Shown here: positions 19,775 through 51,517 of the stretch, in pieces | Layout: the number at the start of each line of letters is the position of its first letter | Position numbering within the stretch: the stretch's first letter is position 1 | IMG/VR virus record: IMGVR_UViG_3300009182_000039 | Location: 1 to 64,000 of that record | From: a virus | Direction: 5' to 3' (one strand) | DNA: 64,000 bases | Program-made: the position numbers and the translations under genes | The notes under the pieces: model-generated | Databases searched by the model: none | What the model saw: only the letters and a program-made list of their open reading frames with translations | Told to the model about the DNA's origin: nothing

Positions 19775-20014
19775 ATGATTAAAATCAATTTTCATAGTTT
19801 TGGTATGGGTGATGTAGAAGACCCCGAACTTTATGCGGCGTTTCCGTTAGGTGAATTTATGGAGACAGAAAAAGGCAAATGGATCAAATCTAATTGTAAG
19901 GATCCAAAATATATTATTCGACCTGATAATGCTACATTTGGCAATCGCATAATTGTCTACGGCGAAGTAGAAGAAAAACTCGCAACAGAATATTTTTTGA
20001 AGTGGGCTGAATGA
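19775..20014 (+). CDS. Small phage protein, FxLKW-like family
   Basis: GDVEDP..YAA.P; ends ATEYFLKW. Confidence 0.7.
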   Translation: MIKINFHSFGMGDVEDPELYAAFPLGEFMETEKGKWIKSNCKDPKYIIRPDNATFGNRIIVYGEVEEKLATEYFLKWAE

Positions 20015-20961
20015 AAATCTTAGTAACCGGCGGCCTTGGATTTATCGGACATAATGTAGTTCGTATACTCGAAAGTTTCCGTCACGAATGTGCTATTATA
20101 GATAGCAAAACTGATTATGGCATTATACCTAAAAGCGAATTAGATTATCTAATGACCGAACGACTATGTAGAATTCGAACTCGAAATATTACGCTAGCTG
20201 ATATTTCTGAACCATTTGACGATAGTATATTCGACGGTGTGGATGTTGTTATACATTTAGCTAGTTTTCCTAGACAAAAAGTAGTTAACAAGAACCCTGT
20301 ACAAGGTAGCAGGGTAATGATTGAAGGATTACTTAACTTACTAGAGCAAAGTGTTAAACACAATGTAAGGAAATTTGTTTATGTTAGCAGTAGTATGGTG
20401 TATGGCAATTTTAATAAACACGCTGTATTTGATGGCATTGATGAAAGTAGTGATTGTAAACCCATAGGCCAGTACGGCATTATGAAATTAACAGGCGAGT
20501 GGCTAGTAAAAGATTATAGCAGACAACATAAATTAGATTACACTATTGTTCGCCCTAGCGCAGTATACGGTCCATACGATGTTGAAGATAGAGTAATCAG
20601 TAAGTTTTTAACACAAGCCATGCGAGGCGAAGAATTAACAGTTAATGGCATCGACGATGCTTTAGATTTTACTTATATCGACGACGCTGCGATGGGCATA
20701 GCACTAGCGGCTATTAGCGAAGATACAAAAAATACTGTTTACAATATTGCTCGCAGCAAATCTTATACCTTAATAGAAGCTGCCAAACTGATAGTTAATA
20801 TAGTAGGCAAAGGTTCCGTGTGTGTTAAAAATCGTGATGTTGATTTTCCTGTTCGGGGACAATTAAATATACTTAGAGCTAAAAGCGATTTTGGATATTA
20901 CCCTACAGTTGATTTAGAAGCAGGGTTACTAGAATATTATGATTGGCTTAAAAATGCTTGA
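20011..20961 (+). CDS. NAD-dependent nucleotide-sugar epimerase/dehydratase
   Basis: TGGLGFIG, SSSMVYG, YGIMK catalytic motif. Confidence 0.93.
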   Translation: MKILVTGGLGFIGHNVVRILESFRHECAIIDSKTDYGIIPKSELDYLMTERLCRIRTRNITLADISEPFDDSIFDGVDVVIHLASFPRQKVVNKNPVQGSRVMIEGLLNLLEQSVKHNVRKFVYVSSSMVYGNFNKHAVFDGIDESSDCKPIGQYGIMKLTGEWLVKDYSRQHKLDYTIVRPSAVYGPYDVEDRVISKFLTQAMRGEELTVNGIDDALDFTYIDDAAMGIALAAISEDTKNTVYNIARSKSYTLIEAAKLIVNIVGKGSVCVKNRDVDFPVRGQLNILRAKSDFGYYPTVDLEAGLLEYYDWLKNA

Positions 20962-22336
20962 TGTTTATTATATTCCCATAGAAAAAATAAAAAAAATAAA
21001 ATGGGAAGGCAATGCTCAATTATATGACACAAAACTATACAATTTAGGCCAAGATCACAATGAATTTATTATTGCTAATCCTGATTTTTGCAACTATCAG
21101 TTTTATAAAAATATAAAATCTTTGCCTTTAAGAAGTTCTAATCGATGTGTAGTTTGGAAATATGAAGGACAATGGATAGCAAAATATTTTACTGCTGAAT
21201 GGATCAATGAACAAAAGTATTGGGAAGTAGATCTTAAACTTGACTGGGTCAAAAATCCAGCTATCGATTCATCCATTGTATTCGAAGATATAATTATCCA
21301 AGATTGGTATGATTTAAATTATGAAATGACTTGGTATTTAGATTCGCGATTTAACCTTACAGCAGATAAAATTTGGGTGGCAAAATGTCAGTTATCAAAT
21401 ACCGATACGTTAGGTACAAAAGACATGGGATATGTTTCTCCTAAAATAACATATAATCCAGAACTTCCCAATTTAGAATATACGATTACTGAAAGAATTC
21501 CATATTATGATTTAGTATACGAACACATATGGTTAGTCGATGATAGTATGACTGGTAACAAATCAAATATATGGGCTGTTAAAATTACTCCAACAGATTC
21601 ACTAGGTACAAAAATAGCAGGAACAGTTAAAATCAATTTGCCAAAACAGTTAGATGTAGTATTCATAAGTTATAATGAACCTAATGCTGAAGAAAACTGG
21701 CGTCGAGTTTTAGAAAAGTCACCACATGCATATCGGATAAACGGCATCAAAGGTATAGTAAATGCTCATATATGTGCTGCAGAATTATCAACTACTGATA
21801 TGTTTTATGTAGTCGACGGAGATGCGTATTTAACTGATGATTGGGACTTTGAATATCAACCAAGTATTTTTGACCGCGATTGTGTTCATGTATGGCGCAG
21901 TATAAATCCTATAAATGATTTAGAGTATGGGTATGGTGGAGTTAAATTGCTACCTAAACAACTAACTTTAGATGTAGATTTAAATTGTGTCGACATGACT
22001 ACTAGTGTTAGTGATAAATTTAAACTAATGAAAAAAATAAGTAATTCTACTAATTTTAACACTGATGAATTCAATACATTTCGCAGCGCATTTAGAGAGT
22101 GTGCTAAATTAAGTAGCAATATTTTAAAAAGACAACAAGCAAGAGAAAGTATGAAAAGATTAGATGTTTGGTGTACAGCTGGTGAAGATAAAAAGTTTGG
22201 AAAATGGTCTATTGCTGGAGCACTTGCTGGCAAAAAATTTGGATTGTTTTATCAAAATAACACCGATGAATTACAAAAAATAAATGATAGTGAATGGATA
22301 CAAAACAAATTTAATGAATTGTGTTTTAATAAATAG
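20954..22336 (+). CDS. Glycosyltransferase-like protein (C-terminal GT-A domain)
   Basis: ISYNEP..EENW, G.KG...AH, VDGD; paralogue of 48501-49439. Confidence 0.65.
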   Translation: MLDVYYIPIEKIKKIKWEGNAQLYDTKLYNLGQDHNEFIIANPDFCNYQFYKNIKSLPLRSSNRCVVWKYEGQWIAKYFTAEWINEQKYWEVDLKLDWVKNPAIDSSIVFEDIIIQDWYDLNYEMTWYLDSRFNLTADKIWVAKCQLSNTDTLGTKDMGYVSPKITYNPELPNLEYTITERIPYYDLVYEHIWLVDDSMTGNKSNIWAVKITPTDSLGTKIAGTVKINLPKQLDVVFISYNEPNAEENWRRVLEKSPHAYRINGIKGIVNAHICAAELSTTDMFYVVDGDAYLTDDWDFEYQPSIFDRDCVHVWRSINPINDLEYGYGGVKLLPKQLTLDVDLNCVDMTTSVSDKFKLMKKISNSTNFNTDEFNTFRSAFRECAKLSSNILKRQQARESMKRLDVWCTAGEDKKFGKWSIAGALAGKKFGLFYQNNTDELQKINDSEWIQNKFNELCFNK

Positions 22337-22341
22337 GTACT

Positions 22342-23547
22342 ATGGAAAACGAATTAGGTTATTATTCAGTTAATAATCAAAAATATACAAACAAAATTCA
22401 AGCTGTTTTAGAAGCACAAAAAACCTTAGCTGAAATTACTTGGAATTTTCATAATGATATCTTTAATCAAATTGACTGGCTTACTGAGCCCGATCTTTCG
22501 TTAGATATACTGTACAAAATGCGGGCTCAGCAAATACGCGATAGATACGACTATGTTATTGTGATGTGTAGTGGCGGTGCTGATAGTACCAATGTTATAA
22601 AAAGTTTTTTAGATAATAATATTCATGTAGACGAAATAGTAGCAGGAGCGCCCATGTCAGGTTTAAATAACTGGAACTGGAATGATCAAGATACTTCAGT
22701 AAACAATACTATAAGCGAAACCAAATATGCGCTATTTCCACTATTAACTAGTATTGCTAGCCAATATCCTAATGTAAAAATTACATTCAATGACTATTTT
22801 GAAAATATTATAAATTATAAAACAGACGAATGGTTATATAATTGTCAAGACTGGATTAACCCTGTTGTAAATGCTAAAGGTAGATTGGATAAGTTTAAAC
22901 ATATTGTAGACTTAGCCGAACAGGGGAAACGAATTGGAGTAGTATGGGGCATTGACAAGCCAGCTTTGCGATACGACCAAGAAGGTAATATATACACAAT
23001 AATATCTGACACAGGAGTAAATGTTGCCGATGCCCCTTTTGATAAAAATTATCCTAATGTAGATCGTATATTATTTTACTGGGCGGCCAATTTTCCTGAA
23101 ATTATGATTAAACAAGCTCATGTTGTGTCAAAGGTTGCTCACAAAAAAGAAAATTTGTGGTTACTGGATTTAATAAAAAAAATGGGATTAGGCAACAATA
23201 AATGGTGGAAGCCTAACTCGCCGAACGATCTTATGAAAGATAATCATACTAAGAATGATTATCAACGTAGTATTGTTCCTTTAATATATGAAACTACAGT
23301 TGAGCAAGTATTTCAGTGTCAAAAATCTCGATTTACATTCATGCCAAAACAGCATGATTGGTTCTATACCTTACACAAAGATACACCAATATATCAATTA
23401 ATCGACAGTGACTTCCGTTTATTTTATAAAAATTTAAATAAAAAATATTTAAAAATTGATCAAACTGGAACTGTTTTTGGGTTTACATCATTTATCCAAA
23501 CATATAAAATTGGTCACTATACAAAATTTATGGAACCAAAACTATGA
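22342..23547 (+). CDS. PP-loop (adenine nucleotide alpha-hydrolase-like) protein
   Basis: RAQQIRD.YDY...SGGADS, GIDKP. Confidence 0.75.
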   Translation: MENELGYYSVNNQKYTNKIQAVLEAQKTLAEITWNFHNDIFNQIDWLTEPDLSLDILYKMRAQQIRDRYDYVIVMCSGGADSTNVIKSFLDNNIHVDEIVAGAPMSGLNNWNWNDQDTSVNNTISETKYALFPLLTSIASQYPNVKITFNDYFENIINYKTDEWLYNCQDWINPVVNAKGRLDKFKHIVDLAEQGKRIGVVWGIDKPALRYDQEGNIYTIISDTGVNVADAPFDKNYPNVDRILFYWAANFPEIMIKQAHVVSKVAHKKENLWLLDLIKKMGLGNNKWWKPNSPNDLMKDNHTKNDYQRSIVPLIYETTVEQVFQCQKSRFTFMPKQHDWFYTLHKDTPIYQLIDSDFRLFYKNLNKKYLKIDQTGTVFGFTSFIQTYKIGHYTKFMEPKL

Positions 23548-24722
23548 AAGATTATTTAGGAATTTACTCCGTCAATGATAGAGTATACACTGACAAGATT
23601 GAAGCAATATTAGAAGCTAACAAAACTAATGCGGAAATTACTTGGGATTTTCATCAAGCTAGATTTAGAAAAATTAACTGGAGTGTTGAACCCTCCACAT
23701 CTTTAACTGAACTTTATAAAATTAGAGCTCAGCAAATTCGAGACGAGTATGATTATGTTATTGTTATGTTCAGTGGTGGTGCCGATAGTACAAATGTATT
23801 ACATAGCTTTTTAAGTAATAATATTCATGTAGACGAAATAGTATCAAGTATTCCGTTATCAGGGTTGCGTGACTTCAAAGCGTCATATGATACCAGTGCT
23901 ACCAATAATGCTAGTGAGTGGTTTTTAACTACCACTCCTTATTTAAAAGAAGTAGCTCAAAAATATCCTAACATAAAAATTTCAATTAATGATTTTTTTG
24001 AGACTATGTTAGATTTTAAAACTGATGAATGGATATATAAATCATCTGATCATATACATCCTACTACCTCAGCACGATATGATCTTTCTAAATTAACTCA
24101 TATTAGACAACTAGCAGATCAAGGTAAAAAAATTGCGGTTATATATGGTAGCGAAAAACCAATGTTAATAATCCACGAAAATAAAATTTTTAATAGCATA
24201 ACAGATGTAGGTGTAAATGTCCCAAGACCGCCGTTTGCTGATTTTTACTCCAATGTAGATATAGTTCTTTTTTATACTACTCCTCGCATGCCAGAAATTT
24301 TAGCAAAACAATCGCATGAAATTTCAAAAGCTATGTTTAATTTGCCACAACATCAATATATAAAAGATATTATACTCAATAGTTCATGGCCAACAGAAAA
24401 AAAATTAGCTTATGATAATGGGTTTTTACAAAGAGCTACCGTTCCCATAATCTACCCAGATATAAAATATAACTCTTTCCAAGCGTCAAAATCCAAAAGT
24501 GTTTTTATGGCAGATCACGATTGGTGGTTTTATAATTTGCATAAGGATAGCAGATTAAACCAGCTAGTAACAAGCGATTTCACTAACTTTTTTAACAGCA
24601 TAAAACCCACCTATTTACGCGATAATCCATATACAAAAGGACATGCATTTAAATCATATACCAACTATTACGGTATAGGATCCATAGAAAATTTCAAAAT
24701 ACGGTTAGAAAATAATTCTTGA
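23544..24722 (+). CDS. PP-loop protein, tandem paralogue
   Basis: RAQQIRDEYDY...SGGADS, GSEKP. Confidence 0.75.
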   Translation: MKDYLGIYSVNDRVYTDKIEAILEANKTNAEITWDFHQARFRKINWSVEPSTSLTELYKIRAQQIRDEYDYVIVMFSGGADSTNVLHSFLSNNIHVDEIVSSIPLSGLRDFKASYDTSATNNASEWFLTTTPYLKEVAQKYPNIKISINDFFETMLDFKTDEWIYKSSDHIHPTTSARYDLSKLTHIRQLADQGKKIAVIYGSEKPMLIIHENKIFNSITDVGVNVPRPPFADFYSNVDIVLFYTTPRMPEILAKQSHEISKAMFNLPQHQYIKDIILNSSWPTEKKLAYDNGFLQRATVPIIYPDIKYNSFQASKSKSVFMADHDWWFYNLHKDSRLNQLVTSDFTNFFNSIKPTYLRDNPYTKGHAFKSYTNYYGIGSIENFKIRLENNS

Positions 24723-24754
24723 GACTAAATAACAGTATACTTTCACAAGGAGAA

Positions 24755-25714
24755 ATGATGAATCAAACTAAGAAAATTACCTGGGTTATTGCCCATGATC
24801 CCGCGTATTTGTTTATTCGTGCCGCTAAATTTTTCAAGGATGCGCTAGAAAAGCGTGTTCCAGGGCAAATCGAAATTGAAGTATTAACAGACAGTGAATA
24901 TAGCGCCAAGTACAATAATGGTGTACCTGTTGGCAAGAAAGATGTTTTAGATTTAATGGAAGCTGGTAAGATTCAAGTAAGTCAATTATATACAACTTGG
25001 TTAGCAGATCGCTATTCTCGTACAATGAATGTTATCGACATGCCATTTTTGTTTAAAGATCATGATCATGCTGCTCGTGTATTCGACGGTGCTATCGGTG
25101 AAGAGCTTTTAGGCAAACTAGAGTCCGAAGGCGGCGACAAGATCAAAGCATTAGCATTTACATACAGTGGTGGTTTCAGAACTATCCCTGCTACTAAGTC
25201 TATTGCTAGTGTAGAAGATTTTAAAGGCGTTAAATTCCGTGTTAGTAGCGGTCCAGTTATCAAAGATACATTTGATGCGTTGGGTGCTGAAACTACATTC
25301 TTCCCAGTTGAAGAATTAACAGAGCGTACATTGTCTGGCGAAGTAGAAGCCGGCGAATGTACATATACTCGTTACTATCCATTAAACCAAGACAAAGCGA
25401 TGTCGTTTATTAATGATATGGAACACAACATTTCTTGTACCAGTATCATTGTTAATCGCGAATTTTGGAATACTTTAACTGAAGAGCAACAAGCCGCTAT
25501 GAAGGCTGCTGGTGTAGCCAGTGCTAAGATTGAGCGTGTTGAAAGTGTTGAAGATGCTGTTCGTATTGAAGCAGAATGCCGCGAAAATGGTGTTACCATT
25601 ACTAAGTGGGACGATACAGAAGTTGCTAAATTTAAAGCAATGATGACTCCAATCTATGACAAGTATACTACATACTTCTCGGATGATTTGGTTAATCGCA
25701 TTAAAAATGCTTAA
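24755..25714 (+). CDS. dctP: TRAP transporter DctP-like solute-binding protein, no signal peptide
   Basis: DMPFLFKDHDHA, GFR, DFKG.KFR, DALGA motifs; SD AGGAG. Confidence 0.85.
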   Translation: MMNQTKKITWVIAHDPAYLFIRAAKFFKDALEKRVPGQIEIEVLTDSEYSAKYNNGVPVGKKDVLDLMEAGKIQVSQLYTTWLADRYSRTMNVIDMPFLFKDHDHAARVFDGAIGEELLGKLESEGGDKIKALAFTYSGGFRTIPATKSIASVEDFKGVKFRVSSGPVIKDTFDALGAETTFFPVEELTERTLSGEVEAGECTYTRYYPLNQDKAMSFINDMEHNISCTSIIVNREFWNTLTEEQQAAMKAAGVASAKIERVESVEDAVRIEAECRENGVTITKWDDTEVAKFKAMMTPIYDKYTTYFSDDLVNRIKNA

Positions 25715-25732
25715 TTAACAAGTATTGAAATC

Positions 25733-25760
25733 AAAGGACTCTTCGGAGTCCTTTTTTTTT
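25733..25760 (+). terminator. Intrinsic terminator
   Basis: AAAGGACTC-TTCG-GAGTCCTTT plus T-tract. Confidence 0.92.
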
Positions 25761-25812
25761 GGTGAGCAATTTGTATGCTAAGTATTGAACTTATATAAAG
25801 AAAAACAGCACA

Positions 25813-26691
25813 ATGAAAAAAATATTATTAATATTAACATTACTCGTCGGCAATGCGTGGGCATCAACAGATACAACGACTATTACGGTAGGCTACGGGC
25901 CCGGTGGTACCGACACTATCATTCGAACACTAGCGGGCGATGCTGAGGCCTATACTGATTTTAAATTTACAGTAGAAAATAAAGTAGGTGCGAATGGTGT
26001 TATCGCATTAAAATATTATTTTGCTCTGCCAGTTGGCAATAAGAATGCGTTAGGAATATCAGGCGGGCAAGTACTATTTGAAGCTATTGCTAATCCTGAA
26101 AATAATTTTATTCAACGATTAAAATTTGTTGGCCCGGTGTTGTCTAGTCCATTAGCAATTGGTGTTAGTAGCAAGAGTCAATTTAAAACCTTAGACAAAT
26201 TGTTTAATAAAAATATACCACGCCAGCGTATTAATATTGGAGTGGCCGGCGAATCACATAATATGTTAGTCGAACAACTAAAAAAATATAGTCATCACGA
26301 TATACAAGCTATACGATTTAAGGGTAGTACCGAATCGTACACCGCATTATTAGGAGGCCATATAGATATGCAATCAGATGCTTATGGCTTTTTTAAACAA
26401 AAAGAAGGCGCTGTTCGTATTTTAGGTGTAGCCGATGCTGATTCTATTGACGGAGTGCCTAGTTTACACAAATATGCGCCTACCGCAAATTTAGTTAATT
26501 TTTTTGCTGTTGCGGTAAATCGAGATACCCCGGATAATCGTAATCTAGCAGATGCGTTGACTGTTGGATTTGTAAAAGCAAATAGATACGAATATTTTAA
26601 AAATCTAGGATATAATGTTGATATGAATCGCAAATCTGACTATGTAGAGCGAGTAGTAGTCCCAACTTATAAAAAATGGGCGACTAAATAG
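25813..26691 (+). CDS. Bug/TctC solute-binding protein
   Basis: Signal peptide, GPGGTD, VENKVGANG.IA, FKG...ALLGGHID. Confidence 0.85.
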   Translation: MKKILLILTLLVGNAWASTDTTTITVGYGPGGTDTIIRTLAGDAEAYTDFKFTVENKVGANGVIALKYYFALPVGNKNALGISGGQVLFEAIANPENNFIQRLKFVGPVLSSPLAIGVSSKSQFKTLDKLFNKNIPRQRINIGVAGESHNMLVEQLKKYSHHDIQAIRFKGSTESYTALLGGHIDMQSDAYGFFKQKEGAVRILGVADADSIDGVPSLHKYAPTANLVNFFAVAVNRDTPDNRNLADALTVGFVKANRYEYFKNLGYNVDMNRKSDYVERVVVPTYKKWATK

Positions 26692-26695
26692 CTGC

Positions 26696-30265: not shown

Positions 30266-30267
30266 AT

Positions 30268-33729: not shown

Positions 33730-33745
33730 AATACTATTTATACTC

Positions 33746-43797: not shown

Positions 43798-43824
43798 CGT
43801 GAAGTGCCTTTATTTGTACAGTAA

Positions 43825-43842: not shown

Positions 43843-43858
43843 TGACAAAGAGAAAAAC

Positions 43859-44911
43859 ATGGACTTTACACCTGGAAAACCAATCAGAACTTATGACGAA
43901 AATGGATCATGGAGAGATTGGAGTACCGACGAATTAGTTGGCGCTAAATTAAATTATTTGCCAGGATGGAAGTGTGGTGCTGGTGTCGATAGTCTGTATA
44001 TCGACATGGACGGTGGTGTGTGGACTGCTAGTTGTCGGGTAGGCGGCAAATTAGGCAATGTATGGGAAAAATTTAAAAGTCCTGAAGATTGGATTAACTG
44101 TACAAGAAATGTCTGTAGCTGCGGAGCTGACCTTTTTATTCCCAAAGTAAGTAAAATAGAATTTAAAAATTTACTTCGCAAAGGTCAAAATTTATCTCCC
44201 CAGAATGATTTGCGTGACAACGAGCAAACAGAGTTTATTGCGTTGGAAAGGACCCACGCTAGTACACAAAAACAAGTTTATTGGGAAATTGGTCGTAGAT
44301 GTAACTACGACTGCGGCTATTGTTGGCCTTGGATACATAATAACACAGATCCACATAAAACATTAGAAGAACTAATGAAAGCTACACATAATATTGAAGA
44401 AAATTTTACACAAGGTGAAAGTGTAAACTTTATTATTAGTGGCGGTGAGCCTACTGTAAACAAACACTTTTTAGAGTGGTTGCGTTACTTGAATAGTTGC
44501 GGGCATCATGTTAGTTTACATAGTAATGGTTCTAGACTGCCTGAATATTACAAAGAAATTATTCATTTTGGAGATTTAAATTTAAGCGTACACTTTGAAT
44601 TTTACGACAAGGAAAAATTTTTAAAAGTAGTAGAAGCTGTTACTGCTGAAAAAGTTGCTAATAAAAACCGAGGAGTTGGGCATCTAGAAATTAAGTTTAT
44701 GATGCCTCCGCATAATCGTGAAGAAGCATTAGAATTAGAAGCAGAACTTAAAAATATTCCTGAATTTATCAACTACTGTACTTGGGCTATCGTGCCTATT
44801 CGTGGTAGTTTAGATAATAATAAGATTACTGATATGACTCGTGGTGCTGGCAGCGAAATTATGACGGGATATACTAAAGAAGATTATTTGTTATTTGGCG
44901 ACCGTAAGTAA
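43859..44911 (+). CDS. Radical SAM enzyme with N-terminal SPASM/Twitch-like domain
   Basis: CNYDCGYC, GGEPT; N-terminal C.AG...C...C....C.C. Confidence 0.85.
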   Translation: MDFTPGKPIRTYDENGSWRDWSTDELVGAKLNYLPGWKCGAGVDSLYIDMDGGVWTASCRVGGKLGNVWEKFKSPEDWINCTRNVCSCGADLFIPKVSKIEFKNLLRKGQNLSPQNDLRDNEQTEFIALERTHASTQKQVYWEIGRRCNYDCGYCWPWIHNNTDPHKTLEELMKATHNIEENFTQGESVNFIISGGEPTVNKHFLEWLRYLNSCGHHVSLHSNGSRLPEYYKEIIHFGDLNLSVHFEFYDKEKFLKVVEAVTAEKVANKNRGVGHLEIKFMMPPHNREEALELEAELKNIPEFINYCTWAIVPIRGSLDNNKITDMTRGAGSEIMTGYTKEDYLLFGDRK

Positions 44912-46282
44912 TTTACATTCGTTATAAAAATCAACCATTTCAGGAAATGTAGCAGCAAAATTTAAATTTCTTCTTGCTGTAAGTTTATCAATATTTTCCG
45001 CAAACTCTTTCTTAGCTTGATCATTTTTATCAGGATTTAGAATACCATTTTTAATTGTTTTAAGAAATTCTACATAAGCTGGCCATGGTCCGTATGGCGA
45101 ATATTTAGAATGATCGTTAATTGCGACCATTTCTTTCTTTAATATTTCGATGCTTTCATCAATGTATCTGGCATACTCGGGCGGCAAGATATAAGGATCT
45201 AACCATTGCGGATAAACAATTTGGTTGGGTCTAAGATGAACCCTGCGTCCTGTCTTTTTCTGTAGTTCAATGACAAATTTAAAAAAGTTAGGTAAATCAC
45301 TAATACACAATGCGTTTAACGCTATTTGAAAATTAAAAATAACTCTAAATTGTGCTGGGTCGTGTTCTTGTAAAAATACTAAAAACTTATCTATGTTAGC
45401 TGTCATTAATTGCCAATCGGTGCCGGTCCTAATAAATTCAGCACGATCGCCAATTGCTTCACAACTAACATTAAAATCTAATTTCAATTGCTTTGAACTT
45501 GCAATCTTCTTGACTGTATCTAGAAATCTATTGTAAAATTTAATTGGCGTATTAAAATTACTTACAATGCTTATGTTACGCCAATAGTCGGTTGTATTTG
45601 TGTTATAAAAATCTATTATTCTGTTGCTATACAAATAAAATTTTTCAATAATTAGTGGTTCACCACCGATAAAGTTAATTGCCGATGCGGTTGGCCCGGC
45701 ACTATTGTCAAACCATGCCCACCATAAATCTTCATAAACAGTATCTGTAATTTTTGGAAGCTCGCGTTCAACGTCTTGTATACGAATTTCGCCATATTTT
45801 AAATTTTCGGCTGCCCATTGACTACTATAATGATGATGGCAGTACATACATTTTAAATCACATGTATTACCTAAAGAAATTTCTATCATCCTAACAGATT
45901 CTAAATTTACGAGAGTGTCTATTTCTTCAGGGGTAAGAGATTTTAATTTTTCTTTTAACTGTTCTTTAGATAAGCCAGGCCATACTTGATTTTTATTTAC
46001 AAAATTAACAAAACTATCCATTCGCGACCGTGGACCACGACCGCCGCTTGCTTCAATACTCCAACAAGAATTGCAATCCTTATGTTGTACTCCTGTAAGT
46101 AAACTACGTCTAACATCTACTATTGGAATAAATTTATTGAATAATTCTATCCCTGTTTTAAAATCTTCTTCTGCTAATGTATTCGATCTGGCTCTACAAC
46201 AATACCGTAACTCGTTTCGAGATAGATTTAATACAGGATAGTCCCAAGCAAAAATACAAATAGTATCTTCAATATTATTCAT
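44891..46282 (-). CDS. Radical SAM enzyme with N-terminal Cys-rich (twitch-type) domain
   Basis: C...W...CC...C..C..E; CDLKCMYC....SS.W; GGEPL. Confidence 0.85.
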   Translation of the reverse strand: MNNIEDTICIFAWDYPVLNLSRNELRYCCRARSNTLAEEDFKTGIELFNKFIPIVDVRRSLLTGVQHKDCNSCWSIEASGGRGPRSRMDSFVNFVNKNQVWPGLSKEQLKEKLKSLTPEEIDTLVNLESVRMIEISLGNTCDLKCMYCHHHYSSQWAAENLKYGEIRIQDVERELPKITDTVYEDLWWAWFDNSAGPTASAINFIGGEPLIIEKFYLYSNRIIDFYNTNTTDYWRNISIVSNFNTPIKFYNRFLDTVKKIASSKQLKLDFNVSCEAIGDRAEFIRTGTDWQLMTANIDKFLVFLQEHDPAQFRVIFNFQIALNALCISDLPNFFKFVIELQKKTGRRVHLRPNQIVYPQWLDPYILPPEYARYIDESIEILKKEMVAINDHSKYSPYGPWPAYVEFLKTIKNGILNPDKNDQAKKEFAENIDKLTARRNLNFAATFPEMVDFYNECKLLTVAK

Positions 46283-47007
46283 TGTGTTAATTTTGTTATA
46301 AAATTCTTTACTTCTTCGGCATTAATTATAAATTGATAAGTATCAACTGGAAGCTGTTTCTGTACCGTTACATCTAGAATACTTATAGGCATCTGTAATA
46401 TCTTAGACAAATCTTCTATTGCTGTTTCATAATGAATCACTGGTAAATTTGTTAAATTAAATATTCTTAATATACCGTCAAATCCTTTCAAATTCATGTA
46501 CGCCCAATAAATTGTTCTGAATCCCTCTCCATCGATCATCACCGAAGAATTTAGTATACCGTTTCCGTAAAAACTATTCCAATTGTGTGTTTTATGTGCT
46601 ACAGCATGACTTAATAGTTGTTTTTTTATATCATTTCGTTTAAGTATCATAAATTCAAAACCACAATCATGTAATACTTTTAATATTTTATCTAAATGGG
46701 GTAACAAATAATCGTAAGGAAATAATTTAACTACAAGAGGTTGTTCTGGATCACCTTCCATAAGAACAGATATTACATTGTTTATACGATCAGTTAACAA
46801 CAGATTTCCGTCTACCTGCTCAGAGTGTTGTATGGCTTTATCATTAGTTAATATGGGTTTGTAAGGTTGATTCTCAGTAAATGGTTCAAGCATATCATAA
46901 ACATGACAGTTTACATATTGTTTAATTGTTCCTGCAATAATTTGTGCTACGTATTGACTGCCAGACCGAGGGGTTCCTATAATACACCATCGATTATTCA
47001 TCAACAA
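46279..47007 (-). CDS. Sulfotransferase-like P-loop protein
   Basis: TPRSGS, L.R.D...Q.LS, YE. Confidence 0.6.
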   Translation of the reverse strand: MLMNNRWCIIGTPRSGSQYVAQIIAGTIKQYVNCHVYDMLEPFTENQPYKPILTNDKAIQHSEQVDGNLLLTDRINNVISVLMEGDPEQPLVVKLFPYDYLLPHLDKILKVLHDCGFEFMILKRNDIKKQLLSHAVAHKTHNWNSFYGNGILNSSVMIDGEGFRTIYWAYMNLKGFDGILRIFNLTNLPVIHYETAIEDLSKILQMPISILDVTVQKQLPVDTYQFIINAEEVKNFITKLTQ

Positions 47008-47950
47008 ATTCCTTTGTGCTCATAATATCAAAATTGCAATGGCACATTTTTTTAGTACACCGCACAGGTTGTGTAGGTAAACTTAAATCTGGGTCAACAA
47101 TATTACCTAGCAAGCCGCCTTCTTTACACCAACCTCGAAAGATGGCTCCGCGTTGATCCACAATTAATTGTTCGACGCCAGCATAACAATCCCACCCTGA
47201 CCAGTCATTTGCTTTTTCATTGATAAACCTATGGGCACTTGCTACCAAAGAAGTATCATTTGGATACAACATTTTCATAGCGCCTCTGTAATAATCAAAT
47301 GACTTATCAAATTTTATATATTTGCTAATTAATTCGTGCTGGCGATCGATAATTTGTTTTTGTTCTGGTGTGTAGTCATATAACACTTCGCCAAAATCGT
47401 GTATTAGAGGCTGGAGGGCCATGGAAATGTTACCAAGAAGTTTTATTTTGTCTGCTATTTCATAGCAGTAGTCAAATTTTTCAGGACTCATCATAATATT
47501 AACATGAGTTCTTACAGTCTTGTTCAATATTTTTACAACTTCAATGAAATGTTCTGAATCTCCAAATTCTGGATGGAAACTTAAACATACATGATCAAAA
47601 TACTGTTTGTTTTCTTCCCAATATCTTAAAGTTCTGGATCCGTTAGAAATTAAACCTACTCTAACTCCTTGTTCTGTACAAAACTGACAAATATCAATAA
47701 AATGTTTGTACAATGTAACTTCGCCGCCAGTAAATTCAAAATAAAGTTTTTTATTGGGGTGTGTTTCTTTAACTTTTAAGATAAAATTTTTAATAGTCTC
47801 TGGAGTCGGCCACGGATTAGACCCATCGTGTAAATTTGCTGGACAATAACTGCAGCTAAAATTACAAGTATTACCCAAACACCAGTTAACTACAAACCAG
47901 TCTGTATTAGTTTCTTGAGCGTGCACTAATTTAAAATATTTTTTCTTCAT
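46994..47950 (-). CDS. Radical SAM enzyme with C-terminal SPASM/Twitch-like domain
   Basis: CNFSCSYC, GGE.T; C-terminal CYAG...C...C....C.C. Confidence 0.88.
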   Translation of the reverse strand: MKKKYFKLVHAQETNTDWFVVNWCLGNTCNFSCSYCPANLHDGSNPWPTPETIKNFILKVKETHPNKKLYFEFTGGEVTLYKHFIDICQFCTEQGVRVGLISNGSRTLRYWEENKQYFDHVCLSFHPEFGDSEHFIEVVKILNKTVRTHVNIMMSPEKFDYCYEIADKIKLLGNISMALQPLIHDFGEVLYDYTPEQKQIIDRQHELISKYIKFDKSFDYYRGAMKMLYPNDTSLVASAHRFINEKANDWSGWDCYAGVEQLIVDQRGAIFRGWCKEGGLLGNIVDPDLSLPTQPVRCTKKMCHCNFDIMSTKEFVDE

Positions 47951-47958: not shown

Positions 47959-48501
47959 TTATTTAATTCCGATTAACATATATCTGGTAAATTTCCATTC
48001 TGGATACACAAAGCGTAATTCGCCTCGGTAAACAATTTCCGACAACGGATAATGATTTGCAAAATCGGATATAGTTGTAGAATGTACAACATGGTCATCG
48101 TGCGGCATATTATTGCCTTGTAGTATAACTCTAGTACCTTTAGGGATACAGTCAAACCATTCCATGCTTTCAAAATGTTCTGTACTAGTATTTATAATTA
48201 AATCTGGTGTGCCCTTTACACCTTGATTACAATCTAATGTAAAGGCTTTGAACTGCCATTCTTTAATTACCCAATTTTCATTAATCACATCAGCAATCGC
48301 TTCGCATGACGGATCAATGTCAAAACTTTCTATACGGTCAACTTTAAATCGTTCTCTACTAAGCAATAAAAATCCTAATACACCGTACCACCCACCGTAG
48401 ATATGTGTTAGTTCACTAGTCCAGCCGAGTTTTTCTAATTCTTGGCACAACCAAAGTTTGCTATCAATTTGTCCATTAGAAAACGCATCTTTATTGAACA
48501 T
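47959..48501 (-). CDS. SAM-dependent methyltransferase-like protein
   Basis: GGWYG, SFDID, INTS.EH. Confidence 0.65.
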   Translation of the reverse strand: MFNKDAFSNGQIDSKLWLCQELEKLGWTSELTHIYGGWYGVLGFLLLSRERFKVDRIESFDIDPSCEAIADVINENWVIKEWQFKAFTLDCNQGVKGTPDLIINTSTEHFESMEWFDCIPKGTRVILQGNNMPHDDHVVHSTTISDFANHYPLSEIVYRGELRFVYPEWKFTRYMLIGIK

Positions 48502-49439
48502 TACCACCCCTCTAACTGACGGATAACATCAATTTCTCGAACCATAATACCTTTATTATGCCAGTCGTTTCGATAATGTGCTTTAAAAAATTTACTTGCT
48601 GTTTCATCTAACATGGTAATAGGTAAGTCTAACTGAGTCAATAAATCTGCGGCTATTCTGCCGGCAATTTGTTCTGGATTGTGTCCGTCGATGGTGTCGT
48701 ATATTGTTTTAAGCGCATCAAAGTTTTGAACTTCTTTGTAATCCCAAGTAGGATTAAGCATTAACATATAAGTACCCATTCGTGCGCCTAATATAGCCCA
48801 AACCCCATTTTCTACATCACGGCCAACATTTTGCCAGATGGTTAAATGATCAAGATTTCGACTGTTCACTTTATTTTTAAATTCTGTAACACTTGGTTTA
48901 ACTCCGCGGTTTAAACACATCTTTACGCCTTCTCTAAATCCCGACCGCCATGCTTGATAGGGAGTAGCATTAGGATAAGTGGTACTATAACAATCGTACA
49001 TAGCAATATAGTTAGGATAGAAACAAAACTCTACATCATTTGCCGCTGTGCCATCGCTGTTTTCGTGAGTTTTCATATTGTAAATAAAATCTTTAGTCCA
49101 ACAACTTAGTCCGCCATTGCCATACATTAATCCGTTAATGATATTACGAGCTCGCCACCGGAAAACGCAATCTTTATCGTTATCATCGATAGAAAGAGCA
49201 AGGTCAAAAAAGTTATCGTCAGGAACATTGTCGCCATCGATCAATACAAATCGATCTGTAATAGCAGCATCGGCGGCGGCTTTATGTGCTGCATCTGAAC
49301 CTTTAACTCCGTCAACACGCATTGCCCAAGGCACCATATTTTTAATTTTAACCCAATTTTCTTCTTTATTGGGTTCATCATATGTCAAGTATATGCAGTC
49401 TAATTCTGCTATATCTATTTTGTTCACCTTAAACTCCAT
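48501..49439 (-). CDS. Glycosyltransferase-like protein (GT-A)
   Basis: YDEP..EENW, GVKGSDAAH, IDGD, YGNGG, RSGFRE. Confidence 0.7.
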   Translation of the reverse strand: MEFKVNKIDIAELDCIYLTYDEPNKEENWVKIKNMVPWAMRVDGVKGSDAAHKAAADAAITDRFVLIDGDNVPDDNFFDLALSIDDNDKDCVFRWRARNIINGLMYGNGGLSCWTKDFIYNMKTHENSDGTAANDVEFCFYPNYIAMYDCYSTTYPNATPYQAWRSGFREGVKMCLNRGVKPSVTEFKNKVNSRNLDHLTIWQNVGRDVENGVWAILGARMGTYMLMLNPTWDYKEVQNFDALKTIYDTIDGHNPEQIAGRIAADLLTQLDLPITMLDETASKFFKAHYRNDWHNKGIMVREIDVIRQLEGW

Positions 49440-49741
49440 TTAATATTTGGTTCCGTTTTTTTAACTACTATACTGACATCGGTGGGATGACACGGAATAC
49501 CAGTTTTGGCAGGGTACAATCTTTTTACTATCGATGTATCGAGCACAACTATGTTATTATCAACTACTCTTATGTGTGTAGGAGGATTAACATATACTTC
49601 TCTAGTAATGTCTATATAATTACCTGGCAAATCCTCTTGGCTATAAAAAAGTGGCTGGCCTTGATCATCATAATACAGCCTATATAGAATAGGTTTTGGT
49701 TCTGCGGGTGTTAATGCCGCCCAAAATTCTTGTTCATTCAT
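49424..49741 (-). CDS. Hypothetical phage protein
   Basis: Coupled ORF, YRLYYD..G motif. Confidence 0.7.
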   Translation of the reverse strand: MNEQEFWAALTPAEPKPILYRLYYDDQGQPLFYSQEDLPGNYIDITREVYVNPPTHIRVVDNNIVVLDTSIVKRLYPAKTGIPCHPTDVSIVVKKTEPNIKWSLR

Positions 49742-50021
49742 CGTGTAAGCCGTGATGTGGTCGGTCGATATCTTGGAATAAGCGTTTTTCCTGTGCTGTT
49801 AGTTTATCTTTTCCTTTGGCCGTTTCGTTATGCCGAGGATTAGAGCACATAGGACAATGCGGGATGCCGCAATCCATAGCATGATGTTTAGCCAAGCGAT
49901 GCGGTTCCTCGATTGGTTTAGTAAGCCCATGAGACTTAGCAATTCTTAATTGTTTTTTAATTGCGGTCCAGGCTTTGTGTAAACGCTTACTATGTTTAAT
50001 CTTATCTTCATCTTTACTCAT
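49734..50021 (-). CDS. Small basic Cys/His (Zn-binding-like) protein
   Basis: CGIPHCPMCSNPRH. Confidence 0.7.
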   Translation of the reverse strand: MSKDEDKIKHSKRLHKAWTAIKKQLRIAKSHGLTKPIEEPHRLAKHHAMDCGIPHCPMCSNPRHNETAKGKDKLTAQEKRLFQDIDRPHHGLHDE

Positions 50022-50736
50022 TTACTAGATCCTTTATATGATAATGTACTAAACCCCACTGTGCTACTGTGTTAATTCTAACTCCAGGATTAGTATGTTC
50101 GCATACTAATTCCCTACTCCAATCTTCTGAAATAATAGGTATCATATGTTTTTTCATATGAACTATAGTCGGCCCTGCTGGTAAGGTAACTTGTTCAACG
50201 CCTATAATAACTGAAGCTAATCCATAAACTACATCAGTAGTAGGTATTTCGTCTGGGAATTTTAATAATGTTTTATAACTTTTCCAATTTTCAAATATAT
50301 TACGAACCAATGTAAAAAATTCTTTAGCTAAGTCACTCGCTTCCCAATATGTGATGGCATTGTAAACATCCGGCAAGTTATTGTTATCAAATATTTTACG
50401 ATAGACCCTTGATTTACCAGGTTGATCATAAAAATCTCTACACCCTTGGCTGATGACTACATTGCGATTGGAAAATAATTCCCACCAATGATCGATAGGA
50501 CTAGCGCACCACATATCAGCTTCTAACTTAATAGTTTTTTTATAAGGGCTTGCCTCGTAACATTGCCAGTCATTGGCAAAACCTTTAAGTTTTCCATAGG
50601 GCAACATATCTTCTGTTAAAATTGTAATATTAGCACTAGGATGCCACGCTAATATACTATCCGCTAATTGTTTAGCACATTTAACATAGACATCGCCTAT
50701 AGCTGGAATTAAATAACCTTGATCAACTAGCAACAA
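50014..50736 (-). CDS. Glycosyltransferase-like protein
   Basis: SPY..TI.LEAD, TDV, HMK, HY; paralogue of next gene. Confidence 0.6.
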   Translation of the reverse strand: MLLVDQGYLIPAIGDVYVKCAKQLADSILAWHPSANITILTEDMLPYGKLKGFANDWQCYEASPYKKTIKLEADMWCASPIDHWWELFSNRNVVISQGCRDFYDQPGKSRVYRKIFDNNNLPDVYNAITYWEASDLAKEFFTLVRNIFENWKSYKTLLKFPDEIPTTDVVYGLASVIIGVEQVTLPAGPTIVHMKKHMIPIISEDWSRELVCEHTNPGVRINTVAQWGLVHYHIKDLVNE

Positions 50737-51517
50737 TATCTCCTAAATGCTTTTTACCCATGGCATGAAAATCTTGTGCCAAAGTTATATAGCGTGGTTT
50801 TAGATCAGGAGTTAAAAAATCTACGCGATAGTTATCTTCGCTAACTTTTGTTAATTTATGTGCCGGAGTAACTGATGCTAAACCCCAAGGAATATCAGTG
50901 TAATTAAGTATGTGTCCGTTAACAATGCCTAACGCTATACTTAACGCAAAATCGTTGCGATATGTTGGTCTATTAACACCATATAAATTTTTAAAGTGTT
51001 GCCAATTATTTTTTATCATAGCCATACAATCAAAAATCATTTTAGCTTCTGTAGAACGTCTAAACATCATTACAGTTGCCCACCACATAGGCATATTATA
51101 ATTTCCAAAATTGTTAAGCTCGTCAAAATTATCTTGCTTGACTACATCGTACGCTGTTTTGTGTGCTACAAAATTTTCTTTTATATTTAAAATTTTTTTT
51201 AATTCGCTACTGGCTACAACATAATCAGCATCTAACACCAAAGTTTGACCCCACGGCGTTAACTCATATGCGTTAACTCGATTGCCGTTATACCATGTTA
51301 CATTTTCTGCTTGATCTTCAAATTTTCTAGAATAGTTGCCTTCGGGAATAGCCGGGATTACCTGTTCAAAAAAATAGTTATGAGGAATTGTTTGATCTGT
51401 TACTACTGCTACTGGTAATTGTAAATGTCTGCGGATATTTTTAGCTGACCAATTAGCCATGGCAAGATAATCTATATGTTCATTATTAAAAGCAAATATT
51501 AATACACCAGTTGTCAT
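50723..51517 (-). CDS. Glycosyltransferase-like protein (DxD)
   Basis: TPW..TLVLDADY, WATV, RNDFA, H.M.K. Confidence 0.65.
   Translation of the reverse strand: MTTGVLIFAFNNEHIDYLAMANWSAKNIRRHLQLPVAVVTDQTIPHNYFFEQVIPAIPEGNYSRKFEDQAENVTWYNGNRVNAYELTPWGQTLVLDADYVVASSELKKILNIKENFVAHKTAYDVVKQDNFDELNNFGNYNMPMWWATVMMFRRSTEAKMIFDCMAMIKNNWQHFKNLYGVNRPTYRNDFALSIALGIVNGHILNYTDIPWGLASVTPAHKLTKVSEDNYRVDFLTPDLKPRYITLAQDFHAMGKKHLGDIVAS

Follow-up and report, generated by a model that had tools for sequence, protein, structure and literature searches.

A hypervariable slot between paralogous glycosyltransferase-like genes beside the fibre genes of a freshwater jumbo phage and its predicted tailoring enzymes

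Variable islands of enzyme genes linked to tail fibre genes have already been published as a general phenomenon. In pelagimyophages and cyanomyophages, a hypervariable island termed the host recognition cluster (HRC) adjoins the genes for the giant protein VrlC and for the fibres and contains glycosyltransferases (GTs) and cassettes of radical S-adenosylmethionine (SAM) genes (Zaragoza-Solas et al. 2020, PMC7029224). Here we describe a locus of this kind on the IMG/VR virus contig IMGVR_UViG_3300009182_000039, which stems from an uncultured lake phage. The analyzed DNA, from now on called the window, comprises the first 64 kb of this 88.9-kb contig, and 40 closely spaced genes (g01-g40) were called within positions 20011-54798. 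Gene identities were checked using Pfam, NCBIfam, motif inspection, all-against-all blastp and local profile iteration. Like the HRC, the locus is a large non-syntenic island within the structural genes, where the fibres and a giant protein of the baseplate type are its neighbours, and both islands contain genes for GTs or GT-like proteins, sugar-nucleotide enzymes and radical SAM cassettes; the HRC cassettes vary between near-identical phages. In contrast to the HRC, which is found in 130-250-kb Kyanoviridae, it belongs to a jumbo phage lineage of ~340 kb (RsoM2USA, Atu_ph07, PA5oct), and its variable part is delimited by two paralogous GT-A-like genes. Furthermore, it contains TctC/DctP-type proteins as well as AsnB-like PP-loop and B12 radical SAM families which were unmatched in a set of 50,697 deposited phage records (tblastn). 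The far boundary of the HRC at the neck gene gp14 was not observed here, where the left flank beyond the variable part consists of an HNH-type gene, small open reading frames (ORFs) and a MoxR ATPase.

The pre-fibre island of the cultured Pelagibacter phage Mosig EXVC030M contains an epimerase, a DegT-type aminotransferase, a carbamoyltransferase and MoaA-like radical SAM enzymes and, in addition, two Asp_Arg_Hydrox proteins, an FA_desaturase, a TauD protein, an N-acetyltransferase and methyltransferases. A preliminary description of the window had regarded such a breadth of chemistry in a phage as uncharacterized. This holds true at the bench; in the literature, the Mosig island and the islands described in PMC7029224 stand against it.

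The Ralstonia phage RsoM2USA (MG752970) shows a gene order like that of the window in ORF347-358, all of which are annotated as hypothetical. A fibre-like gene is followed by g37, g36, g35, one small ORF, g32, an N_Twi radical SAM gene, a g02-like and a g31-like gene, with a short-chain dehydrogenase/reductase (SDR) gene nearby. The g32 homolog is 44% and the g02-type paralog 41% identical, and RsoM2USA is the only deposited phage with a g32-type gene. In contrast to about 28 genes here, its slot holds a single radical SAM gene. Of the virion proteins of RsoM2USA, a 21-kDa protein and the giant protein encoded next to this locus have been identified, in a study that did not look for modifications (PMC8504454). 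For its clade-mate XacN1 at least two virion glycoproteins have been reported (PMC5852040); no g32-type gene was found in XacN1 by tblastn at E 1e-5.

The PBCV-1 capsid GT A64R is a virus-encoded cytoplasmic GT-A enzyme which decorates structural proteins without host machinery. It was among the top structure matches of the g32 model (probability 1.00, root mean square deviation 6.0 over 210 columns, E 1.6e-3). However, the sequence identity is ~11%, the chlorovirus system has no hypervariable tailoring slot, and for the lineage described here a virion glycan is a prediction. Iyer et al. 2010 described dioxygenase genes arrayed in tandem in cyanophage Syn9, as well as neighbourhoods in which beta-hydroxylase and sulfotransferase genes accompany tail-collar proteins; their computational proposals were modification of peptides or fibre-like proteins, or secondary metabolism (PMC2938197). 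Such arrays and the window have in common many paralogous cupin/2-oxoglutarate (2OG) hydroxylases in one phage locus. The oxygenases of the window, in contrast, are of the Asp_Arg_Hydrox and TauD types and interleaved with B12 radical SAM and PP-loop enzymes, and neither halogenases nor collagen-like acceptor proteins were found here. Finally, 11-12 radical SAM genes are known from the Campylobacter phages CP220 and CPt10 (PMC2853527) and from the marine EVG (12 genes, PMC5332604). Interchangeable modules of several radical SAM genes connect these T4-like phages with the window, which differs in having only five such genes, two of them B12-type; g12 and g28 had no Campylobacter phage match (tblastn). 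New are the slot between two paralogous GT-A-like genes, the finding that two island types can take each other's place in a single slot, the AsnB-type fold predicted for an orphan PP-loop family, and the cultured phage RsoM2USA as a handle with which the tailoring idea can be tested.

The slot and its walls

Elsewhere the contig encodes nucleases similar to gp46/47, baseplate proteins similar to gp5, gp6 and gp26 and a late sigma factor similar to gp55, and the MoxR-type ATPase is closest to those of PA5oct, Phosso and Atu_ph07. Judged from this content and the giant structural protein, the contig is a fragment of a ~340-kb freshwater jumbo phage of the T4 superfamily. Its nearest cultured relatives are RsoM2USA, PA5oct, Atu_ph07 and Phosso, and one relative (G004) is 98% complete with 340 kb. 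For g40, 595 confirmed relatives were found in IMG/VR, the best 80 of these 595 at at least 80% identity and on contigs of up to ~347 kb. By this search result, freshwater metagenomes contain this jumbo phage lineage very frequently, and it appears to be one of the commonest there.

In ~70 related phages, whose loci were fetched with g40, the right flank is kept in the order giant baseplate-type protein, g40, g39, g38, g37, g36, g35, (g34), g33, g32, and divergence begins past g32. The left flank is kept in the longer contigs with a g02 ortholog: an HNH-type gene, three small genes and the SDR gene g01 precede g02. The two genes at which conservation ends, g02 and g32, are paralogous (32% identity over 212 amino acids, E 1.5e-25 in blastp). 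The preliminary description had noticed that paralogous GT genes bracket the locus and that tail and baseplate genes abut it; both observations were borne out, and g02 and g32 are the true walls of the slot. The distance between them is ~6 kb in relative G001, ~11 kb in G003, ~22 kb in G002 and 26 kb in the window, where the hypervariable slot extends from 22342 to about 47950. The conserved core consists of g01-g02 and g31/g32-g37.

The contents of the window slot can be divided into five modules, and gene orientation switches several times. Module A (g03-g07, with g08) combines two predicted adenylating enzymes of the AsnB-like type with a binding protein of the DctP fold, an exported one of the TctC family and an amidohydrolase. 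Module B (g09-g16) comprises a further AsnB-like enzyme, a pyridoxal phosphate (PLP) aminotransferase, three cupins, two B12 radical SAM enzymes and another exported TctC protein, and module C (g17-g18) pairs a Rieske oxygenase with a small PP-loop protein. Module D (g19-g24, with g25 and g26) likewise has a small PP-loop protein, together with two GNATs, a desaturase-like protein and two oxygenases, one a cupin and the other of the TauD type, and module E (g27-g31) contains three radical SAM enzymes, g29, and g31 with its methyltransferase-like motif. Modules common to close relatives are 60-92% identical and were gained or lost independently. The slot of G001 holds only homologs of g31, g30, a g27-like gene, g22, g21, g20, g19 and g08. 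G002 has nearly all of the content of the window slot, without g09-g16, g27 and g29, and in G003 the g19-g24 block is placed on the opposite side of g02. The slots of the more distant relatives G004 and G005 contain five or six tandem N_Twi radical SAM genes plus a carbamoyltransferase gene, and in G004 a DegT/DnrJ/EryC1 sugar aminotransferase gene (E 3e-55) lies just outside the slot and adjoins the SDR gene. Beside the carbamoyltransferase gene of G004 a gene for a D-Ala-D-Ala carboxypeptidase (Peptidase_S11, E 1e-36; L171:8001-8786) was observed inside the slot.

From this comparison of gene contents, the locus is a conserved core with a hypervariable slot of separable modules and not one fixed pathway of ~31 kb, as the preliminary description had assumed. 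On the same grounds, the radical-SAM-type and the PP-loop/TctC/oxygenase/desaturase-type contents are alternative fillings of one slot, with g02 and g32 as fixed walls and exchangeable modules between them. A repeat scan for signals of mobile cassettes returned only repeats derived from paralogs, and scans of the island for sigma-70 promoters and terminators showed no enrichment.

The same gene families recur in other viral contigs. Within 66 non-redundant 20-kb neighbourhoods of relatives of the B12 radical SAM proteins, ~24% of 1356 ORFs belonged to gene families of the window. Same-family genes were often tandem paralogs there, with up to eight desaturase-like genes per locus. Recurrent neighbour pairs were GNAT-PP-loop and Rieske-PP-loop and, most commonly, cupin-B12, desaturase-PP-loop, large PP-loop with TctC genes (an adjacency observed four times) and twitch radical SAM genes with those of the g27/g30 type. 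As far as the databases searched reveal, this toolkit is widespread and found almost only in viral or metagenomic sequence. The whole island gave no match in a megablast search of the deposited phages. In one contig (L022, IMGVR_UViG_3300042484_002676) eight desaturase-like paralogs at 2969-15300 surround B12 radical SAM, Rieske and PP-loop genes.

Such an island could in principle be an artefact of chimeric assembly or a host-derived segment. The G+C content of the island (0.31-0.36) is slightly below that of its flanks (0.38-0.40), and DctP, TctC and Amidohydro_2 are typically bacterial families. However, between them the contigs of three further freshwater runs left none of the 30 bins of 24000-43999 uncovered, with identities of mostly at least 99%; alignment joints which skipped 4-9 kb in these run contigs had sides of 21-26 letters and were disregarded. 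The junctions g32-g31-g30, g17-g18-g20 and g03-g08-g02 were found again in independent viral contigs, and phage-type start-proximal motifs are present within the island. A chimeric or host-derived segment is effectively excluded. Neither finding by which the preliminary description would have been refuted was obtained, since the genes co-occur across relatives and the same DNA is carried by independent runs.

PP-loop, radical SAM and glycosyltransferase-like proteins

The preliminary description had counted five PP-loop ATPases and five radical SAM enzymes, two of them B12-type, and these counts were confirmed, the B12 type with scores below cut-off. The PP-loop motif SGGxDS occurs in the paralogs g03, g04 and g09 of ~390 amino acids and in the paralogs g18 and g21 of ~305 amino acids. 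The genes g03 and g04 (22342-24722, plus strand, g04 from 23544) are the first of module A and encode SGGADS, as does g09 (28221-29363, plus strand), the third large AsnB-like PP-loop protein, which belongs to module B and is 31-34% identical to g03/g04. The small proteins contain SGGVDS (g18) and SGGTDS (g21) and are 26% identical to each other (E 2e-27). Residues S77, G78, G79, D81 and S82 were invariant across 34 members of the large family.

Only g03 was modelled among the PP-loop proteins, and its AlphaFold2 (AF2) model had a pLDDT of 92. Foldseek retrieved only a generic PP-loop domain with this model. An exhaustive structure alignment (VIA), in contrast, matched the whole model to the C-terminal synthetase domain of AsnB (1ct9_A) with a Z of 10.5 over 284 residues, spanning model residues 4-383 and residues 142-516 of 1ct9_A. 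The next fold matches (Z 8.0-9.9) included human ASNS, beta-lactam synthetase (8.8), TsnB9 (8.6) and carbapenam synthetase (8.0); other PP-loop enzymes reached about 7. The g03 type resembles the synthetase domain of AsnB and its offshoots (beta-lactam synthetase, carbapenam synthetase, TsnB9) in SGGxDS and overall fold and differs from this family by the missing N-terminal glutaminase and a sequence identity of ~10%. Absence of the N-terminal nucleophile (Ntn) glutaminase domain follows from the length of the PP-loop proteins (300-400 amino acids) and from the match, which begins at AsnB residue 142. The modelled fold suggests that the large PP-loop proteins likely adenylate a carboxylate, which a nitrogen nucleophile would then attack to form an amide, rather than transfer sulfur, and the complete lack of cysteine in g04 also counts against sulfur transfer.

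No Pfam match was obtained for g03, g04 and g09, no NCBIfam match for g03 and g09 and no PHROG match for g03/g04; g03 alone and profile A1 gave nothing useful against PDB chain sequences. The small proteins g18 (24.5 bits) and g21 (22.1 bits) matched QueC at a cut-off of 22 in the loop region only, and g21 scored 16 bits on Pfam Asn_synthase, below the cut-off of 21. More than 466 metagenomic homologs make up the large family, which has no Pfam domain and of which none is named beyond one automatic label; the closest ESM Atlas clusters are labelled 100% viral. Neither the g03 family nor g18 had a tblastn match in deposited phages. The g03-family alignment found no relative in a pattern scan of 185,579 species genomes, an absence which is weak evidence since these scans need a few exact peptide patterns. 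A single-query scan of IMG/VR with g03 likewise returned none, the exact peptide patterns of g03 being absent there, and the family surfaced in loci fetched otherwise. Within this range of searches the large PP-loop family was found only in viral or metagenomic sequence. In G004 the sole large PP-loop homolog (G004:C1:113309-113638) lies ~14 kb outside the g02-g32 slot, and large PP-loop genes are thus not restricted to the slot.

The five radical SAM proteins with CxxxCxxC are g12, g16, g27, g28 and g30. In module B, g12 (30952-32388, minus strand; Radical_SAM E 1.8e-13) and g16 (34705-36246, minus strand), the first gene of the minus-strand operon of this module, both encode CIFKCKFC and are 33% identical in an alignment from residue 21. 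On PF04055 they scored 51.5 and 44.2 bits, respectively (cut-off 29.5). On the B12-binding family PF02310, g16 reached 29.6 bits, just below the cut-off of 32.1, and g12 had no direct match. Their best NCBIfam matches were families of B12 radical SAM enzymes, all far below cut-off, and g12 weakly matched PhpK and C-methyltransferase families for ribosomally synthesized and post-translationally modified peptides. For the B12 radical SAM family 306 confirmed relatives were found in IMG/VR; g12 had no match in deposited phages (tblastn) and none in the pattern scan of the 185,579 species genomes, the latter absence again being weak evidence.

The remaining three belong to module E. The N-terminal-twitch radical SAM protein g28 (44891-46282, minus strand) matched NF033640 with 209.1 bits (cut-off 170), residues 6-453 covering model positions 2-398. 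Among deposited phages it was found in RsoM2USA only (tblastn), and relatives carry up to 5-6 tandem g28 paralogs in the same slot. Both g27 (43799-44911, plus strand) and g30 (46994-47950, minus strand) matched Radical_SAM (E 8.6e-17 and 1.3e-12), and orthologs of g30 with 83-88% identity adjoin g31/g32 in close relatives. The paralogs g27 and g30 showed a reversed domain order: the radical SAM core at residues 160-318 of g27 corresponds to residues 21-170 of g30, and residues 14-116 of g27 align to residues 210-313 of g30, an auxiliary Cys-rich domain.

The left core begins with g01 (20011-20961, plus strand), an extended SDR resembling NDP-sugar epimerases and dehydratases (Pfam Epimerase, E 3.5e-41). 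Its best NCBIfam match was dTDP-glucose 4,6-dehydratase with 113 bits, under the cut-off, and orthologs with 63-84% identity were present in G001, G002, G003 and G005. In the adjoining GT-like gene g02 (20939-22336, plus strand), which forms the left slot boundary, the C-terminal half is paralogous to g32; its orthologs in G001-G003 are placed 6-22 kb from the g32 ortholog. The right boundary gene g32 (48501-49439, minus strand) encodes a GT-like protein with a predicted GT-A fold and is syntenic in ~70 relatives. The DxD motif D68-G69-D70 was at least 90% conserved across 12 members of the g32/g02 family. The AF2 model of g32 had a pLDDT of 76, and the Foldseek matches listed for it were all nucleotide-sugar enzymes, mostly GT-A (RmlT, PBCV-1 capsid GT, SunS). 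An ESM Atlas neighbour cluster of g32 is automatically named 'GT2-like'; profile A2 of g32/g02 had no match among PDB sequences, and g32 had no Pfam match. Among deposited phages, g32 was detected only in RsoM2USA (tblastn).

The right core continues with the paralogs g35 and g36 (50014-51517, minus strand; E 5e-4), which are weakly GT8/NleB-like and syntenic in ~70 relatives and RsoM2USA; g35 matches phrog_1903. No membrane segments were found in the GT-like proteins. A small conserved protein, g37 (51514-51822, minus strand), syntenic in relatives and RsoM2USA, separates them from the fibre genes at 51891-54798 (minus strand), namely the Thr/Ser/Gly/Asn-rich fibre-like g38, the tail fibre g39 and the conserved virion-module protein g40 (54190-54798). 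The tail fibre g39 has a C-terminal intramolecular-chaperone protease domain with a Peptidase_G2 match, and the g38-g40 region gave PHROG tail-fibre matches. Homologs of g39 and g40 lie beside the giant structural gene of Atu_ph07. The giant structural protein of the window lineage (4919 amino acids; minus strand, 54989-64000 and on to 69748 of the contig) matches the virion structural family phrog_10938 and has homologs in PA5oct, Atu_ph07, Phosso, SCTP-2 and some Prochlorococcus phages; a baseplate wedge gene adjoins its gene. The fibre proteins and the giant protein contain no collagen-like (GXY)n run.

TAAATA motifs had been taken as a sign of late expression in the preliminary description. 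The motif is indeed enriched: it stands 9-16 nt before the start codon in 11 ORFs of the contig where 0.5 were expected. The island accounts for six of them, and the motif also precedes g19. The starts concerned include 1695, 2648, 7249, 12473 (minus), 22342, 26696, 33729 (minus), 36246 (minus), 36292 and 47950 (minus), and the motif was noted at -10 of g16 and g19 and at -11 of g07 and g14. The lateness itself is deduced from the motif together with the gp55-like factor, which suggest late transcription by analogy, and the spacing of only 4-6 nt between TAAATA and ATG suggests that the late mRNAs may be leaderless. Eight short contigs (151-212 nt, 0-1 mismatches) of one lake metatranscriptome matched island genes exactly or nearly so, at 24810-25369, 33392-33578, 36107-36257, 36743-37025 and 42273-42484 (g05, g15, g16, g17, g24); they were not counted as expression since DNA carry-over is possible.

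Proposed function and competing explanations

The observations of the preliminary description were confirmed, and its interpretation, a pathway which decorates virion proteins or glycans or makes a small molecule, was partly supported: decoration of glycans or virion proteins fits the context best. We tentatively favour a decoration of the sugar or N-acyl type that is tailored in modular fashion and probably carried by virion proteins, although this proposal falls somewhat short of an even chance. In this scheme the conserved SDR and GT-like proteins would make and transfer a sugar, which the slot modules would edit. Carboxylates, possibly scavenged via the TctC/DctP-type proteins, would be activated as adenylates by the AsnB-like enzymes and then linked through amide bonds. 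The GNATs would N-acylate amino groups supplied by aminotransferases, the cupin, TauD, Rieske and di-iron enzymes would hydroxylate or desaturate, and the B12 and twitch radical SAM enzymes would methylate or rearrange unactivated carbons. With a virion surface protein (fibre or baseplate) as the acceptor, each phage would obtain its own surface chemistry.

Several features favour a sugar-type product, namely the conserved SDR gene and GT-like walls with the DGD motif and weak GT-A matches of g32, the DegT aminotransferase and carbamoyltransferase in or beside the slot of relatives, and the analogous pre-fibre island of Mosig. An aminotransferase, a GNAT and an amide ligase are the requirements for N-acylated amino sugars or uronamides, as in O-antigen chemistry. 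Since the TctC/DctP-type families bind carboxylates, such proteins could supply the AsnB-like enzymes with the acid to be activated. The virion is favoured as the target because the conserved GT-like core is fixed to fibre genes in every relative, and the late-type TAAATA motif and the attachment to fibre genes make a virion surface protein the most likely acceptor. The gene order kept in RsoM2USA and the virion glycoproteins reported for its clade-mate XacN1 point in the same direction, although XacN1 lacks a g32-type gene.

A number of points weigh against this proposal. Product, acceptor and enzyme activities are predicted only, here and in relatives. The GT assignment is weak: the best Foldseek E of g32 was only 1.1e-3 at a TM-score of about 0.3. 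The preliminary description had counted four GT-like genes; g02 and g32 share the DxD motif, and profile A3 of g35/g36 matched NleB only with E 0.28-0.58 over ~70 residues. The fibre proteins have no obvious acceptor motif, and the 'late' class rests on analogy with T4. The modules occur independently and need no shared substrate, two exported binding proteins and the membrane protein g20 fit envelope or lipid chemistry at least as well as a virion glycosylation in the cytoplasm, and the AsnB-like, B12 radical SAM, Fe/2OG, GNAT and amidohydrolase families also serve amino-acid-derived antibiotics.

Remodelling of the host envelope (lipopolysaccharide, O-antigen, capsule or membrane lipids) during infection is a competing explanation, which we consider unlikely; its purpose could be, for instance, blocking superinfection, preventing progeny from sticking to debris or adjusting membrane properties. 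It would account for the signal peptides of g06 and g15, for the membrane di-iron desaturase-like g20 and for the D-Ala-D-Ala carboxypeptidase in the slot of G004. LpxO, which hydroxylates lipid A, belongs to Asp_Arg_Hydrox, and this membership likewise points to the envelope. Modification of the O-chain is a published speculation for the pelagimyophage islands (PMC7029224), and cyanophage desaturases act on host lipids (PMC5776448). However, g20 found no cyanophage vFAD at E 1e-5, the Pfam scans of the island ORFs revealed no flippase, polymerase, ligase or lipid-carrier initiating transferase, and the GT-like proteins have no membrane segments. Moreover, the core is fixed to fibre genes and not to early or host-takeover genes, and the start-proximal motif is of the late type. 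The slot might also be a hot spot of recombination where unrelated auxiliary genes accumulate that act singly on host metabolism, without a common pathway. The independent gain and loss of modules, the several orientation flips and the near absence of relatives of g25, g26 and g29 agree with this unlikely explanation, as do the hyperplastic regions typical of T4-like genomes (PMC7029224). It is at odds with the way in which the same few families recur, expand as paralogs and form non-random neighbour pairs across hundreds of viral contigs, and with a slot that always lies between two paralogous GT-like genes. Unlike what would be expected for host-captured genes, the two largest families have no cellular relatives that the searches described above detected.

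It is quite improbable that the modules make a diffusible small molecule (a siderophore, a signal or an antibiotic with an amide or lactam group, for instance) out of amino or organic acids. Beta-lactam synthetase, carbapenam synthetase and the hydroxamate-forming TsnB9 are among the nearest folds of g03, and a HisC-like aminotransferase is present. The mix of an AsnB-like synthetase, a B12 radical SAM enzyme, an Fe/2OG oxygenase, a GNAT and an amidohydrolase is that of complex carbapenem pathways. Secondary-metabolite roles were also proposed by Iyer et al. for the cyanophage dioxygenase arrays (PMC2938197). Against such a product, and in agreement with the preliminary description, which had seen no nonribosomal peptide synthetase (NRPS), polyketide synthase (PKS) or obvious scaffold gene, the Pfam/NCBIfam scans of the island revealed no NRPS, PKS, crotonase-type, ATP-grasp, precursor peptide or exporter gene. 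The small island ORFs g08, g33, g34 and g37 are conserved proteins without the look of a leader and core. In addition, the late-type motifs in a lytic jumbo phage would leave little time for a diffusible product, and the conserved partners are GT-like and SDR genes. Hypermodification of phage DNA or phage tRNAs, finally, would draw on PP-loop, radical SAM, 2OG and GT enzymes, all of which are known from nucleic acid modification pathways, and g18 and g21 weakly match QueC at the PP-loop. It is nevertheless very improbable: the QueC matches are confined to the PP-loop at 22-24.5 bits with a cut-off of 22, no gene of the DpdA/TGT, hydroxymethylase, kinase or TET/JBP type was revealed by the Pfam/NCBIfam scans of the island, such a function is hard to reconcile with exported and membrane proteins, and the locus lies in the fibre and not in the replication module.

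If tailoring of a virion decoration is the function, the slot could, as a bolder and doubtful extension, be a generator of combinatorial chemistry in which a toolkit known almost only from viral or metagenomic sequence (stand-alone AsnB-like amide ligases, B12 and N-twitch radical SAM enzymes, cupin hydroxylases, desaturase-like enzymes and carboxylate-binding proteins) is shuffled between two GT genes so that a heavily edited glycan or acyl decoration of the fibres or baseplate differs from population to population. It would then be a non-templated counterpart of the diversification of receptor-binding proteins, setting host range or evading surface defences. Under the favoured proposal itself, abundant giant phages of freshwater would diversify their surface by enzyme-made chemistry besides fibre mutation, and a layer of host recognition would be invisible to sequence-based host prediction. 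The AsnB-like PP-loop and B12 radical SAM families, which have no characterized member, are in any case candidates for new amide-forming and C-H-functionalizing reactions.

Other genes of the locus

Most of the further assignments of the preliminary description stood up to the Pfam searches, including the three solute-binding proteins g05, g06 and g15, the amidohydrolase g07, the Rieske protein g17, the desaturase-like g20 and the epimerase-type SDR g01. In module A, g05 (24719-25714, plus strand) encodes a DctP-fold ligand-binding protein (Pfam DctP, E 3.7e-46, 158 bits) without a signal peptide, the probable true start being 24755. Homologs of g05 have 312-319 amino acids, and all five that were inspected (P0123, P0145, P0173, P0178, P0236) lacked a leader. 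These N-termini point to a cytoplasmic subfamily of TRAP-type binding proteins. One of the five leaderless homologs lies on a contig of 1.26 Mb, another in a Bacteriovorax metagenome-assembled genome. A terminator-like hairpin lies 3' of g05 at 25733-25754. The TctC/Bug solute-binding protein g06 (25813-26691, plus strand; Pfam TctC, 33.9 bits, cut-off 27) has an N-terminus which reads as a signal peptide. No TctA was found in the 88.9-kb contig, and DctQ/M were not searched for. The gene g07 (26696-27760, plus strand) belongs to the Amidohydro_2 family of metal hydrolases and decarboxylases (Pfam E 3.2e-17). It is followed by g08 (27807-28112, plus strand; 101 amino acids), which has no Pfam family match and travels with the slot; its homologs adjoin g02 in G001 and G002.

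In module B, the PLP enzyme of the preliminary description was identified as the class I/II aminotransferase-like g10 (29360-30265, plus strand), whose profile A7 matched histidinol-phosphate aminotransferase (HisC) with E 3.3e-5 and which has an invariant Lys in SLSK. Six Fe/2OG-type oxygenases including TauD had been claimed; five were found (g11, g13, g14, g23, g24), all with an HxD motif, and a sixth was not. The Asp/Arg-hydroxylase-type cupin oxygenase g11 (30268-30951, minus strand) scored 26.7 bits on PF05118 (cut-off 22.6). The cupin oxygenase-like g13 and g14 (32357-33729, minus strand, g14 at 33729-32965) joined the g11/g23 family through local profile iteration only, with ~80 members in 37 of 80 loci. 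The second TctC/Bug protein, g15 (33746-34669, minus strand; Pfam TctC, E 2.7e-18, 66.9 bits), has a signal peptide with a hydrophobic N-terminal segment at residues 7-26.

Module C consists of the Rieske oxygenase g17 (36292-37134, plus strand; Rieske E 5e-8) and the small PP-loop protein g18 (37115-38041, minus strand), a pair which was found again in L049, L005, L053, L022 and G002. In module D, g19 (38031-38609, minus strand) is a GNAT-like acyltransferase (profile A6 against GNAT, E 0.001) and g20 (38474-39451, plus strand) a membrane di-iron protein similar to FA_desaturase (Pfam E 1e-15) with three transmembrane-like segments and three His boxes including HNNHH. In deposited phages g20 was matched only in pelagiphage Mosig and two Acinetobacter phage records (tblastn). 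The divergent genes g19 and g20 overlap by 136 nt as called; since g20 homologs have ~270 amino acids, the start of g20 is probably the ATG at 38633. The small PP-loop gene g21 (39451-40371, plus strand) is followed by the GNAT N-acyltransferase gene g22 (40368-40967, plus strand; profile A5 against 4lua, E 9.9e-7). The GNATs g19 and g22 are an addition to the earlier gene list. The Asp_Arg_Hydrox cupin g23 and the TauD Fe/2OG oxygenase g24 (40964-42450, plus strand, g24 from 41569) scored 33.7 bits on PF05118 and 61.2 bits on TauD (cut-off 27), respectively. Two genes without a family match, g25 (42447-43049, plus strand) and g26 (43033-43797, minus strand), have orthologs in G002 only, with 50% and 82% identity, respectively.

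Two assignments of the preliminary description, a sulfotransferase-like g29 and a methyltransferase g31, remain at the level of motifs. For g29 (46279-47007, minus strand), which contains a P-loop-like GTPRSGS, no match was obtained in Pfam, NCBIfam or PDB sequences and no homolog in any fetched locus. The small conserved protein g31 (47959-48507, minus strand) has a Rossmann-type glycine motif; it had no profile match in the libraries, and its profile A4 retrieved nothing from PDB sequences. Homologs of g31 occur in 12 of 80 B12 radical SAM loci and adjoin g32 in close relatives and in RsoM2USA. In the right core, the small genes g33 (49424-49741, minus strand) and g34 (49734-50021, minus strand) have no family match and are syntenic in most relatives; g34 encodes a His/Cys-rich segment with a CPMC motif.

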